A DNA stretch of 64,000 nt. Source: an uncultured Chloroflexia bacterium (GTDB taxonomy: Bacteria > Chloroflexota > Limnocylindria > Limnocylindrales > CSP1-4). The stretch lies in contig CAWHSS010000003.1 of the NCBI GenBank assembly GCA_963832105.1, positions 472,131-536,130 on the forward strand, written 5' to 3'. The position numbers and the translations under genes were made by a program. Below, one piece after another: positions 42,610 through 46,545 of this stretch (the first letter of the stretch is position 1; each line of letters starts with the position of its first letter). The notes under the pieces are model-generated. The model was not told the origin of the DNA. It did no database searches and saw only the letters and a list, made by a program, of their open reading frames with translations.

Positions 42610-43950
42610 TCAGCGGCCGCGGAACCTCGCTCGAAGGGCGGCCATCGGGGCATAGCGCCAGCGCGGCAGGAAGCGGGCGGCGTAGACGAGCTCCCGGCAC
42701 TCCTGCTCGACCTCGAACGGCGCGACGAGTGCCTCGTCGAACAGATCGCGCCGACCGACTGACTCGAGACCGGCCGCGTACGCCGCGACGAACGCGGCGG
42801 TCGTTTCGGCGATCCAGCTTCCGACGCGGGCAACGAGCGCGCCCTCGACGCGTTCGGCCACCACCCGACCGACGTGGTCGAGGCTCGTCGTCATCTGGGC
42901 CACGTCGCGGGCTGCCGGCTGCAGAGCGGCATTGACCTTGGCTCCCAGCGTCGGGTTGCCGTCGAAGTCGATGATCGCGAGGCCGTCGCGCCATTCGAGG
43001 ACCTGGCCGACATGGAGATCGCCATGGATCGGCTGGACGGGCGTGCCGGTTTCGGTCGCCAGCGTCGCGAGGACGTTCCTGATCGGGCTCGCAAGTGCGC
43101 CGAGCTCCCCGCCGCGCTCCTGGTCCTGGGCCTTGATCGCCTCGTCGAACGTCGCGAGCGCCGCCGCCCGCCAGCGGTCGACGAGCTCGGGGCTGGCGTG
43201 GGCGATCGGCTCCGGGATGACGTCCGACGGCAGGGCCATGGCGACGTGGAGGCCCGCGACCAGGCGGCCCAGCGGCGCGCCGATCCACGCGTCGCACTCC
43301 GGCGGGCACGGGCCGTCCTCGTGCTCGAGGTGCGCCTCGAGCCGCGCGACGCACCACTCCCAGCCGTCCCGGGCGTCGGGCAGGTAGGCGTCGACGAGGG
43401 CGATCGTCGACTCCTGGCCATCCGGCGCGGTCCACGAGAGAGAGCCGAAGGGGCGGGGGACGGCGTCGAAGCCGACTGCGGCGAGATGGGCGAGCAACGT
43501 CGCGGCCCGCTGCTCTCCGGGTTCGGGCAGCTGCAGCCACTTGACGACGACCGCGTCGCCGACGACGACCGACGCGTTCGTCTGGTCGACGCCGATCGCC
43601 CGTTCAGCGGGCTCGTGGGGCCGCGGGGCGTCGGCCAGCCGCAGAAGCCCGAAGCGGCCGCCCAGCTTCGTCTTGCCGGCGAGCGCGTCGACCAGCGCCG
43701 CGGAGACCCCGTCGCCGGCACGCGCCTGGCGCCACCGTCGATCCGTCCCGACGAGCGGGACGAGCACGAGCCGATCGGCGACATCGGCGGCGATCGCCAC
43801 CACGAGTCGACGGCCCTCGCCGCCGCCCGGCAGCTCGCACGCGTCGAGCAGCCGCAGGCCGGCGAACGGGATCGGGACGTAGCCCGCCTCGGCGGGCGTC
43901 TCGGCCGGCGGCCAATCACGTCCCAGCTCGGCGAGGAGCGACGGACTCAT
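42610..43950 (-). CDS. Maltokinase (Mak/Pep2)-like aminoglycoside-phosphotransferase-fold kinase
   Basis: Last 446 codons of ORF 42610..45570 from MSPSLLAELG: IGVDQTNASVVVGDAVVVKW, IHGDLHVGQVL, IIDFDGNP. Confidence 0.7.
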   Translation of the reverse strand: MSPSLLAELGRDWPPAETPAEAGYVPIPFAGLRLLDACELPGGGEGRRLVVAIAADVADRLVLVPLVGTDRRWRQARAGDGVSAALVDALAGKTKLGGRFGLLRLADAPRPHEPAERAIGVDQTNASVVVGDAVVVKWLQLPEPGEQRAATLLAHLAAVGFDAVPRPFGSLSWTAPDGQESTIALVDAYLPDARDGWEWCVARLEAHLEHEDGPCPPECDAWIGAPLGRLVAGLHVAMALPSDVIPEPIAHASPELVDRWRAAALATFDEAIKAQDQERGGELGALASPIRNVLATLATETGTPVQPIHGDLHVGQVLEWRDGLAIIDFDGNPTLGAKVNAALQPAARDVAQMTTSLDHVGRVVAERVEGALVARVGSWIAETTAAFVAAYAAGLESVGRRDLFDEALVAPFEVEQECRELVYAARFLPRWRYAPMAALRARFRGR

Positions 43951-44044
43951 GCCCCTCCGCGGCCTGCCTCGCCGCGTACGATGCGTACGGACACCCATCG
44001 TCGCTGCCCTGGTTGAACCGTTCAGTCCGCCACCTCCGAGGACC

Positions 44045-45375
44045 ATGATGGCGCACGAGCCCCAGACGATTCTGTTCATGCCCGAGTCGGCGTACGGACC
44101 GACGAACAACTGCATCGGCATCGGCGACGTCCTGCGGCGCCGCGGCCATCGGGTCGTGTTCGCCGCGGAGCGGTCGTGGGCCGGCAAGCTCGAGGCGCTC
44201 GGGTTCGTCGAGGATCTCGTCGACCTCGCCCCGCCCCCGGACGATCCCGGCGGTGCCGGAGACCAGGATCCGGGCCAGTTCTGGAAGGACTTCATCCGCG
44301 ACACGTCGCCCGAATTCCGCAAGCCGACCATCGAGCAGCTCGCGACCTTCATGCAGCCGACCTGGCAGGCCCTCATCGACGGCGCCCGCTTCTGCGAGCC
44401 CCAGCTCCGCGAGATCATCGATCGGCAGCAACCGGACGTCATCGTCGAGGACAACGTCGTCGGCTTCCCGGCGCTCGTGACCGCGGGGCAGGCCATTCGT
44501 CCGCATCGTCTCGTGCAATCCGCTCGAGGTTCGCGGGCCCGACATCCCGCCGCCCTATTCCGGGTTGCCGTCGGACGATCGATCCGAATGGGACGCCTTC
44601 CGCGAGGAATACGACCGGACCCACCGGCCGACATGGGAAGCATTCGACGCGTGGGTCCGCGAGCAGGGCGCGCCGGGGCTGCCCGTTCCTCGAGTTCATC
44701 CACACCTCGGACGTCCTGAACCTCTACGTCTATCCCGAGATCGTCGACTACGTCGAACGACGGCCGCTCGATGCGACCTGGCAGCGGCTCGATTCGAGCG
44801 TCCGCGGCACCGACGGCGACCCCGAGCTGCCGGCACTCATCACGGATCGCCCGGAGGGCAGCGCGCTCATCTACCTGTCGCTGGGATCGCTCGGCAGCGC
44901 CGACGTCGGCCTGATGCGGCGCCTCGTCGAGCTGTTGTCGCGAACGCCCCACCGCTACATCGTCTCGAAGGGGCCGCAGCACGCCGAGTACGAGCTCGCC
45001 GACAACATGTGGGGCGCGGAGTTCCTGCCCCAGACGAAGCTCATCCCGCTCGTCGACCTCGTCATCACCCACGGCGGTAACAACACGACGACCGAGGCGC
45101 TCCACTTCGGGAAGCCGATGATCGTTCTGCCCCTGTTCTGGGACCAGTACGACAATGCCCAGCGCGTCGACGAGACGGGCTTCGGCGTCAGGCTCCGGAC
45201 GTACGACTTCGCCGACGACGAGCTCGCCGGCGCGATCGAGCGGCTTCTCGCGAGCCCCATCCGCGGCCGCCTCGCCGACGTCTCGCGGGAGATCCGGGCA
45301 CGCGACGGCGTCACCCGGGCGGCCGATGCGATCGCGGCTGTCGCCAGCAAGGCGGGGACGGCATCGCGGCGATGA
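44045..45375 (+). pseudogene. GT1 (MGT/UDP-glycosyltransferase) family glycosyltransferase, 2 frameshifts
   Basis: Stitched from ORFs 43949.., 44565.. and 44176..45375: MMAHEPQTILFMPESAYGPTNNCIGIG...; C-terminal VITHGGNNTTTEALHFGKPMIVLPLFWDQYDNA. Confidence 0.75.
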
Positions 45376-46175
45376 CCGCGACGGCGACCGAGCCGCGCCT
45401 CCGGACGGTCCGGGCGACGCGCTACGTGACCGCGTTCCGCGAGGGCGGCTCGCTGCCCGGCCTCGTCGAGGCCGACGACGACGGGCTGTACGTCGTGAAG
45501 TTCCGCGGCGCCGGCCAGGGCCCCCGCGCGCTCGTCGCGGAGTGGCTGGCCGGCGAGATCGGCCGCGCACTCGGGCTCCTCGTGCCCGACCTCGTCGCGG
45601 TCGACCTGGCCGCCGAGATCGCCGACTCGGAGCCGCACGAGGAGATCCACGACCTGCTCGTCGCGAGTGTCGGCCGGAACATCGGCCTCGACTTCCTGCC
45701 GGGATCGCTGACCTTCAATCCCGCCGCCGACGCGGTTCCCGATGCGAATTGGGCGGCCGACGTGGTCTGGTTCGACGCCCTCGTCACCAATCCCGACCGG
45801 TCGCCGCGGAACCCGAACATGCTCGTCTGGCATGGCCGGACGTGGCTGATCGACCACGGCGCCGCGCTCTACATCCACCACACCTGGCGCGACCCGGCGG
45901 AGCATGCCCGGCGGCCGTTCGACCGGATCGGGGACCACGTCCTGTTGCCATCGGCGGGCTCGATCGCCGCGGCCGATGAGCGCCTCGCGCCGCTCGTGAC
46001 TAGCGACCTGCTCGTGGACCTGACCGACGCGATCCCGGACGACTGGCTCACCCCGGACTCGGCAGTCGGCGATGCGGTGGCCCAGCGGCGGGCGTACATC
46101 GACTACCTGCTGACGCGACTCGACGCCCGCCGGGCCTTTGTGGAGGAGGCGGATCGTGCCAGAGCCGCAGCCTAG
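45372..46175 (+). CDS. HipA-like / PI3-4-kinase-fold kinase family protein
   Basis: ORF 45372..46175; its ATG overlaps the GT1 stop (ATGA). Contains YVVKFRGAGQGPRALVAEWL, NPDRSPRNPNMLV and WLIDHGAAL (catalytic and metal loops). Confidence 0.65.
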   Translation: MTATATEPRLRTVRATRYVTAFREGGSLPGLVEADDDGLYVVKFRGAGQGPRALVAEWLAGEIGRALGLLVPDLVAVDLAAEIADSEPHEEIHDLLVASVGRNIGLDFLPGSLTFNPAADAVPDANWAADVVWFDALVTNPDRSPRNPNMLVWHGRTWLIDHGAALYIHHTWRDPAEHARRPFDRIGDHVLLPSAGSIAAADERLAPLVTSDLLVDLTDAIPDDWLTPDSAVGDAVAQRRAYIDYLLTRLDARRAFVEEADRARAAA

Positions 46176-46545
46176 CCAGTTCCAGTACTCGATCGTCCGG
46201 GTCGTCCCCGACGTCGAGCGCGGTGAGTGCCTCAACGCCGGCGTGATCCTGCTCTGCCGCCCGCGGCGCTTCCTGGCGGCCCGCGTCGGGCTCGACGAGG
46301 GGAAGCTGCGGGCAATTTCGCCCGACGCCGATCCCGCCACGATCCTGCCCCACCTCGCGGCCATCGAGCGGATCGCGGCCGGCGACGAGTCTGCCGGACC
46401 GATGGCCCGCCTCGGCCAGGGCGAGCGATTCCACTGGCTCGTCTCGCCGTCGAGCACGGTCATCCAGGCGTCCGAGGTCCACACCGGCCTCAGCGACGAC
46501 CCGGCGGCGGAGCTCGATCACCTCTACGAGCGGCTCGTCGGCTAG
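46156..46545 (+). CDS. DUF3037 domain protein
   Basis: GTG 46156 is preceded by GGAGGAGG and overlaps the kinase 3' end by 20 nt. FQYSIVRVVPDVERGECLNAGVILLC matches my recollection of the DUF3037 N-terminus. Confidence 0.65.
   Translation: MPEPQPSQFQYSIVRVVPDVERGECLNAGVILLCRPRRFLAARVGLDEGKLRAISPDADPATILPHLAAIERIAAGDESAGPMARLGQGERFHWLVSPSSTVIQASEVHTGLSDDPAAELDHLYERLVG

Follow-up and report, generated by a model that had tools for sequence, protein, structure and literature searches.

A short-form HipA_2 kinase/DUF3037 pair beside a glucosamine-kinase/GT1 module in Candidatus Limnocylindrales: probably two juxtaposed modules

A block of four genes from an uncultured Chloroflexia bacterium raises the question of whether a glycosyltransferase, a HipA-like kinase, and a DUF3037 protein that are encoded in overlapping genes also belong to one pathway, or whether two separate modules have come to lie next to each other. 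The block is located in a DNA stretch of 64,000 nucleotides (contig CAWHSS010000003.1 of assembly GCA_963832105.1, positions 472,131 to 536,130 of the forward strand; henceforth, the window), of which the G+C content is ~70%. At the protein level, it is most closely related, at up to 92% identity, to metagenome bins assigned to Candidatus Limnocylindrales (Chloroflexota). In the original prediction, the three genes were described as a coupled operon around a two-gene pair of no assigned function, divergent from a maltokinase-like kinase. The analysis described here favors a different answer: the block probably consists of two independent modules that are adjacent in one Candidatus Limnocylindrales subclade, i.e., a glucosamine-kinase/GT1 module and a kinase/DUF3037 pair that is a short-form homolog of PDC-M66/DS-6/HipAD. 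As far as its sequence tells, the pair would be a variant of a known defense system and not a new system. The features on which the argument depends are listed below; the predicted 94-nt divergent gap, the ATGA overlap between the GT1 and kinase genes, and the GTG start at 46156 behind its own Shine–Dalgarno (SD) sequence, 20 nt inside the kinase gene, are all found in the window.

42610-43950, minus strand: glucosamine-kinase-family gene (maltokinase paralog, Mak-like), 446 aa, assigned by the NF041273 match and the family signature
43951-44044: divergent intergenic region between the glucosamine-kinase and GT1 genes, 94 nt, from the coordinates
44045-45375, plus strand: GT1-family glycosyltransferase with two +1 frameshifts (~44485 and ~44682), assigned by Pfam and by tblastn with orthologs
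45372-46175, plus strand: HipA_2-type protein-kinase-like gene, 267 aa, predicted effector, assigned by PF20613 and PDC-M66A
46142-46158, plus strand: SD sequence GGAGGAGG and GTG start of the DUF3037 gene, inside the kinase C-terminal F-V-E-E-A-x-x-R-A codons
46156-46545, plus strand: short-form DUF3037 protein consisting of the domain alone (129 aa), predicted kinase partner and neutralizer, assigned by PF11236

The open reading frame (ORF) at 45372-46175 opens at the ATGA junction, where ATG 45372-45374 overlaps the GT1 stop codon TGA 45373-45375, and its product of 267 aa includes both of the kinase loops named in the original prediction, NPDRSPRNPNMLV and WLIDHGAAL. It matches Pfam HipA_2 (PF20613) with 64 bits at a cut-off of 27, and PADLOC PDC-M66A (PDLC04766) with an E-value of 1e-24 over residues 3-248 and profile positions 3-256 of 270. 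The kinase family assignment is thereby upheld; neither the HipA_C nor the HipA_N Pfam model matches the protein, and HipA_2 alone is reported. The family is large (3147 representative clusters at E-values of up to 0.001), and 52 of its sequences show no variation at K43, the REGGS loop, D142, N147, N149, and D161-H162-G163; all catalytic residues are present, and the window protein appears catalytically competent. Its AlphaFold2 model (predicted local distance difference test score, pLDDT, of 89.6) adopts a protein-kinase-like fold with CtkA, Fam20, and PI4KII kinases as the best PDB folds, while no HipA structure is found among the top 50 structural neighbors and a sequence search against solved structures gives nothing significant. 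Canonical HipBA and HipBST systems likewise combine HipA-type catalytic motifs with a protein-kinase-like fold, and their toxic kinase is neutralized by a co-encoded partner. Canonical HipA, however, is a protein of ~440 aa with N- and C-terminal domains, whereas the window kinase lacks the HipA N-terminal domain; and, unlike in HipBA, no helix-turn-helix HipB gene lies upstream, where the GT1 gene is found here and a desaturase or unrelated genes are found in other lineages.

The partner gene, read from GTG 46156 to 46545 (129 aa), bears out the predicted DUF3037 assignment with 141 bits over the full PF11236 profile (positions 1-118 of 118), and it matches PADLOC PDC-M66B (PDLC04767) with an E-value of 8.6e-13 solely at profile positions 3-128 of 281. 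In 60 sequences of the family, 24 columns are invariant, including Y11, R15, R22, E24, N27, R91, S100, T101, Q104, and H109, so that the conserved motif P-x-S-T-x-x-Q and His109 are among them. Although the AlphaFold2 model is of high confidence (pLDDT 93.1), no PDB fold matches it with an E-value below 0.8, so that the idea of an antitoxin domain of the HipS or HipA-N kind was rejected; neither a HipS nor a HipA chain occurs among the 50 best matches of the fold search, and the sequence finds nothing significant among solved structures. Matches of the model to HORMA folds, with template modeling (TM) scores of 0.2-0.27, are noise, and the eukaryotic "DUF3037" of RST1/Focadhesin (IPR022542, cited for ARM-repeat proteins) was judged unrelated to bacterial PF11236. 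Separately, four uncharacterized viral proteins in BFVD (A0A516KTX2, A0A6G5YJM1, A0A516KZK0, and A0A6J5NRF1; 125-287 aa) have the DUF3037 fold, with TM scores of ~0.54-0.61 and a probability of 1.0, and two of them (261 and 287 aa) are near in length to DS-6B, the long-form protein discussed below.

The start of the DUF3037 gene is embedded in its neighbor: the SD sequence GGAGGAGG at 46142-46149 lies within the F-V-E-E-A codons of the kinase, a 6-nt spacer leads to GTG 46156 within its Arg-Ala codons, and the kinase stop codon TAG follows at 46173-46175, which gives an overlap of 20 nt. The context of the junction, TTCGTGGAGGAGGC-N4-5-GTGCC, is largely kept across phyla; of 24 loci sampled over several phyla, ~19 have a GAGGAGG-like SD sequence at equal spacing, and the start codon is GTG in 20 and ATG in the remaining 4. 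The junction is in effect a dual-coding constraint, the Bacteroidota example L065 included. Proteins of 346-424 aa with both domains (P0128, P0156, P0163, P0202, P0205, P0209, P0246, P0256, and P0184) were considered as Rosetta-stone fusions and left unused, because their domain matches are merely partial and they are most likely frameshifted gene calls.

Experimental work on long-form homologs bears on the claim that the pair lacks an assigned function. DS-6, renamed HipAD, protects E. coli against phage, and a D139A mutation in its kinase abolishes defense (DefensePredictor, Science 2026, PMC13092281); according to the same source, HipAD was found independently by Brenes & Laub (Cell Host Microbe 2025) among E. 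coli prophage-encoded defense systems. In the operon of Retron-Sda1, a HipA-like/DUF3037 pair identified as PDC-M66 defends by itself, such that no defense remains upon deletion of the kinase, and deletion of the DUF3037 gene is toxic (PLoS Biol 2025, PMC12548924). A literature search on "HipAD" returned unrelated papers only. With the PADLOC candidate system PDC-M66 and these two validated long-form systems at hand, the pair can no longer be counted as being without an assigned function. The sequences of DS-6A and DS-6B, which were taken from the supplement of PMC13092281, were compared with profiles of the window families by using hhalign: the kinase aligns to DS-6A with a probability of 97.6% (E-value 4.7e-12, 25% identity, 194 columns), with its D142 (NPDRSPRN) on the DR motif of the DS-6A segment NADRT, which should hold D139, and the DUF3037 protein aligns to residues 5-128 of the 275 residues of DS-6B with a probability of 93.3% (E-value 2.8e-07, 21% identity).

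The likeness extends to architecture, as DS-6 is also a two-gene module in which the gene for a HipA_2 kinase of ~250-270 aa comes first and overlaps a DUF3037 gene downstream on its strand, and the window pair matches both PADLOC models of PDC-M66. The differences are concentrated in the second gene. DS-6B (275 aa) and the PDC-M66B profile (281 positions) contain a C-terminal domain of ~150 aa that the window protein of 129 aa lacks; this domain is DUF1829-like in DS-6B and is predicted, though weakly, by AlphaFold3 to bind DNA (PMC13092281), and in its C-terminal part the Sda1 DUF3037 protein resembles the type III-A1 retron DNA-binding protein (PMC12548924). The genes overlap by 4 nt in DS-6, in contrast to 20-23 nt with an internal SD sequence and GTG in the short form. 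Compared with the Retron-Sda1 neighbor, the window has the same domain pair without a reverse transcriptase, a non-coding RNA, or the extra domain of the DUF3037 protein. HipAD was prophage-encoded in the E. coli study, whereas the short form is found amid housekeeping genes.

The distribution of the short form was examined by a profile scan with one genome per species, which detected at least 598 loci, of which 80 were kept and joined by three metagenome contigs to give 83 related loci; the 80 belong to Chloroflexota, Actinomycetota, Acidobacteriota, Cyanobacteria, Proteobacteria, Bacteroidota, Abditibacteriota, and Myxococcota. The kinase gene is directly followed by the DUF3037 gene on the same strand in all 83 loci, over about eight phyla, an adjacency that is far beyond chance and confirms that the pair is recurrent. 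The DUF3037 protein is 125-156 aa long in 74 of the 77 loci with a callable ORF. Of 79 loci, 77 have overlapping kinase and DUF3037 genes, mostly by 20 or 23 nt (stop/start overlaps of 8-23 nt in 70 of the 79 and of 4-47 nt in 76), and the two proteins are correlated in their pairwise identities (r = 0.81). The pairing is thus obligate and its coupling conserved. The GT1 gene, on the other hand, is upstream of the pair in seven loci only (L001-L007), all with a kinase identity of 75% or more, and is missing from the other 76. Within the seven, GT1, kinase, and DUF3037 genes keep their order and strand, as the original prediction expected of relatives, and the ATGA coupling recurs in the four closest, L001-L004; the glucosamine-kinase gene is present in L001, L002, and L004 only. 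In the next Limnocylindrales clade a desaturase directly abuts the pair, and elsewhere the neighbors are unrelated. Outside Limnocylindrales, flanking ORFs were clustered all against all and the nearest neighbors were scanned with Pfam and PADLOC, which detected no third recurring gene, and no glycosyltransferase or sugar gene is recurrent beside the pair in other phyla.

The GT1 gene has a more evident companion in the divergent kinase gene at 42610-43950. What had been called maltokinase-like carries instead the exact signature of glucosamine kinases (GlcNKs), as its C-terminus QECRELVYAARFLPRW matches Q-x2-RE-x2-YA-x3-LP-x-W without deviation and its catalytic loop contains D-L-H (HGDLH). 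This signature, together with D-x-H, was defined for SjGlcNK and MsGlcNK (Manso et al., mBio 2019, PMC6520443), was confined to Actinobacteria in that paper, and marks a family that is tightly associated with a GT1 (PMC6520443). The window gene resembles these enzymes in signature, D-x-H, and pairing with a GT1 gene, and differs from them in that its host belongs to Chloroflexota, no SIS isomerase gene is adjacent, and the match to NCBIfam NF041273 GlcN_kinase, at 312 bits, stays under the equivalog cut-off of 550. It also evolves faster than its neighbors, with 59% identity and a ratio of nonsynonymous to synonymous substitution rates (dN/dS) of 0.47 against L001. A comparable arrangement is found in Nonomuraea gerenzanensis (L085, NZ_LT559118.1 2653341-2668375), where a GlcNK homolog is divergent from an ATP-binding cassette (ABC) transporter operon that comprises a solute-binding protein, two permeases, an ABC ATPase, a 235-aa protein, and finally a GT1 with 67% identity to the L002 ortholog of the window GT1. 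This cluster suggests a module for import, phosphorylation, and glycosyl transfer. The Nonomuraea GT1 gene is ~5 kb from the GlcNK homolog and 190 kb from the HipA_2/DUF3037 pair of the genome. The record NZ_LT559118.1 is filed as an 11.85-Mb "plasmid" and is evidently a chromosome.

Because the GT1 gene accompanies the pair in only seven close relatives, and because in Nonomuraea it sits with the GlcNK homolog while the pair lies far off, the block is read as two juxtaposed modules and not as one pathway. The competing view is that GlcNK, GT1, HipA_2 kinase, and DUF3037 protein together phosphorylate and glycosylate a small molecule such as an antibiotic, a glycolipid, or an envelope precursor, the HipA_2 protein then being a small-molecule kinase; it draws on the ATGA overlap in the window and in L001-L004, on the constant order and strand in seven loci, and on the lipid kinases, such as PI4KII, among the structural neighbors of the kinase. 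Synteny has largely refuted this single-pathway reading, given the absence of the GT1 gene from 76 of the 83 pair loci and the restriction of GlcNK to three; in addition, a validated homolog acts without such a partner and the GT1 protein scores far under macrolide-glycosyltransferase cut-offs. We therefore regard a single shared pathway as very improbable, and the claimed functional fusion of the GT1 gene with the pair is not supported. The idea of small-molecule phosphorylation and glycosylation survives in part, since the restriction of the GT1 gene to close relatives, the GlcNK signature, and the published GlcNK–GT1 association make it fit the GlcNK/GT1 module but not the HipA_2 pair. Local gene order, and not a shared pathway, most likely accounts for the co-transcription of the GT1 gene with the pair through the ATGA junction.

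The GT1 gene also requires a correction of its own. The stretch 44045-45375 was taken as one gene; its family stands, but a single intact ORF does not, because its 1331 nt are not a multiple of 3 and, by comparison with intact orthologs (439-465 aa), the coding sequence occupies three frames (44045-44485, 44493-44684, and 44677-45360). When queried with these orthologs, tblastn returns three pieces that are each 90-92% identical, and DNA alignment places 1-nt insertions at ~44485 (in a GGGG run) and ~44682 (in a CCC run). The C-terminal piece matches Pfam EryCIII-like_C, UDPGT, and Glyco_tran_28_C. In tests with models of macrolide glycosyltransferases (MGTs), the intact ortholog L001:4685-6004 reaches 101 bits versus a cut-off of 260 for TIGR01426 (MGT) and 64 versus 700 for NF033129 (Mgt), and the window C-terminal piece reaches 86 bits; by these curated models, the protein would be a GT1-fold enzyme and not of the MGT type that had been proposed. 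Frame-aware segmentation of the whole window detects many short same-strand frame switches. An Fe-alcohol dehydrogenase gene (4262-5419, minus strand) is split twice by two compensating shifts, and genes for a hydroxyacyl-CoA dehydrogenase (32140-33238, minus strand), an OmpR-type response regulator (38340-39015, plus strand), and an amino-acid permease (39408-41553, plus strand) are frameshift-split.

Since frameshifts are found throughout the window and metagenome bins from long reads are its best genome matches, both GT1 frameshifts are most likely assembly indels; the frame splits of the window in general point to indel noise across the assembly, which probably stems from a long-read metagenome bin, and not to gene decay. 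Alternatively, the changes may be real, so that GT1 is a recently inactivated pseudogene and the kinase and DUF3037 genes are the sole intact genes of the transcription unit. Both changes are insertions that do not compensate each other, of the three frameshifts detected in the 12 kb for which orthologs allow a check, two fall in the GT1 gene, a point that weighs against assembly noise, and the partner GlcNK evolves faster than its neighbors (dN/dS 0.13-0.47). Such a recent inactivation nevertheless seems rather unlikely to us, as both insertions lengthen homopolymer runs, similar splits affect genes of a clearly essential type elsewhere in the window, and the GT1 pieces, at their high identity to intact orthologs, have dN/dS values of 0.07-0.15 and hence give no sign of decay.

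On the reading as two modules, a mechanism can be outlined for each. The divergent GlcNK-family gene and the GT1 gene would form a sugar activation and transfer pair. In the second module, the HipA_2 kinase would be the effector, with a growth-arresting or anti-phage activity, and the DUF3037 protein would restrain it as a co-translated neutralizer; from the validated long-form systems we infer such toxicity, neutralization, and any anti-phage role for the source organism as well. A kinase-based toxin/antitoxin-like or defense role, which was among the candidate roles originally put forward, is what the homology to DS-6/HipAD supports. The strong SD sequence and GTG inside the kinase gene would be expected to provide the DUF3037 protein alongside the kinase or in surplus over it, and because the C-terminal domain of DS-6B and its Retron-Sda1 counterpart are missing, sensing or autoregulation through that domain is expected to be different or absent.

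Several observations weigh against a defense role of the pair and in favor of a chromosomally fixed housekeeping signaling pair, in which the kinase phosphorylates a cellular target (e.g., in dormancy, stress, or metabolic control) and the DUF3037 protein is an obligate regulatory subunit, a substrate, or an enzyme with the same target. Throughout Limnocylindrales, the pair stays beside the same desaturase at kinase identities of 66-92%, and it diverges at the rate of the flanking housekeeping genes, with dN/dS of 0.09-0.13 for the kinase versus 0.11-0.18 for a hydratase in the closest three loci (0.28 for the kinase versus L005), 0.10-0.30 for the DUF3037 gene versus close relatives, and a similar value for the flanking DUF1444 gene. 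The short form is under purifying selection and lies in housekeeping contexts. In the 40 loci outside Limnocylindrales, the nearest neighbors are mostly metabolic, just 9 PADLOC families (at most ~10 protein-family matches) occur among 79 neighbor ORFs, and a Bacteroides example of the pair lies amid glycan-utilization genes. By tblastn, the short-form pair has no match in 50,697 INPHARED phage genomes or in 2.9 million IMG/VR contigs, on which grounds a phage or prophage origin was rejected, the fold match of the four BFVD proteins notwithstanding, and has 9 matches in 72,556 plasmids. The invariant polar residues of the DUF3037 protein, which would be unusual for a passive antitoxin in their abundance, and its fold without a solved relative are in line with these findings; moreover, the homology to DS-6 is remote at 25% and 21% identity, and the searchable literature contains no experimental test of the short-form pair. 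As to the separation into two modules, the ATGA junction conserved in the four closest relatives makes some local functional link between the GT1 gene and the pair possible.

A housekeeping role is nonetheless doubtful, although it deserves serious attention, because the sole experimental data on the family, those on long-form homologs, describe toxicity control and phage defense; the patchy distribution over eight phyla, at kinase identities of 51-62% between phyla, looks like horizontal spread; the DUF3037 fold also occurs in a few viral proteins; and some defense systems are encoded outside defense islands, which was the rationale of DefensePredictor (PMC13092281). Along similar lines, the domain-only pair might constitute a distinct, anciently coupled kinase switch that is fixed in the chromosome and diverges along with its housekeeping neighbors, with the DUF3037 protein as an enzyme or a phospho-acceptor of the kinase and with GT1 co-translation, in this Limnocylindrales subclade, tying the switch to amino-sugar or envelope metabolism. 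We consider this improbable; if it were true, the DUF3037 protein would be no passive antitoxin and the pair no mobile defense system. The reading as a short-form PDC-M66/DS-6/HipAD homolog next to a separate GlcNK/GT1 module thus remains the probable one.

The remaining features of the region complete the picture of the locus and include the following neighbors.

41631-42620, plus strand: fatty-acid desaturase
further in the same region, minus strand: two enoyl-CoA hydratases and a DUF1444-like gene

A simple scan of the operon, including the 94-nt gap, detected neither a sigma-70-like promoter nor an intrinsic terminator. The gap contains two copies of GCGTACG and short palindromes at ~43967-44001, which could be a candidate operator. 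The sole match of an Rfam scan of the operon is ASdes (RF01781, a mycobacterial antisense small RNA to desA), located at 41973-42040 on the minus strand, antisense in the desaturase gene, with 57 bits versus a gathering score of 40; this match may merely reflect the conserved coding sequence of the desaturase and not a small RNA of Chloroflexota. Elsewhere in the window, 24014-25583 and 26330-29117 do not segment as coding in the frame model, with a lower G+C content (0.67) and a positive AT skew.

The value of the present analysis lies mainly in clarification, as the presumed uncharacterized system is a remote short-form relative of a kinase-based anti-phage, toxin/antitoxin-like module that was validated in 2025-2026, and its apparent fusion with a glycosyltransferase would be a lineage-specific juxtaposition with a separate GlcNK/GT1 module. 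At the same time, the short form occurs widely among soil bacteria from many phyla, behaves like a stable chromosomal pair, and retains an embedded ribosome-binding site and a GTG start that hardly vary, and testing it for toxin/antitoxin or defense action would reveal the role of the DUF3037 domain alone.

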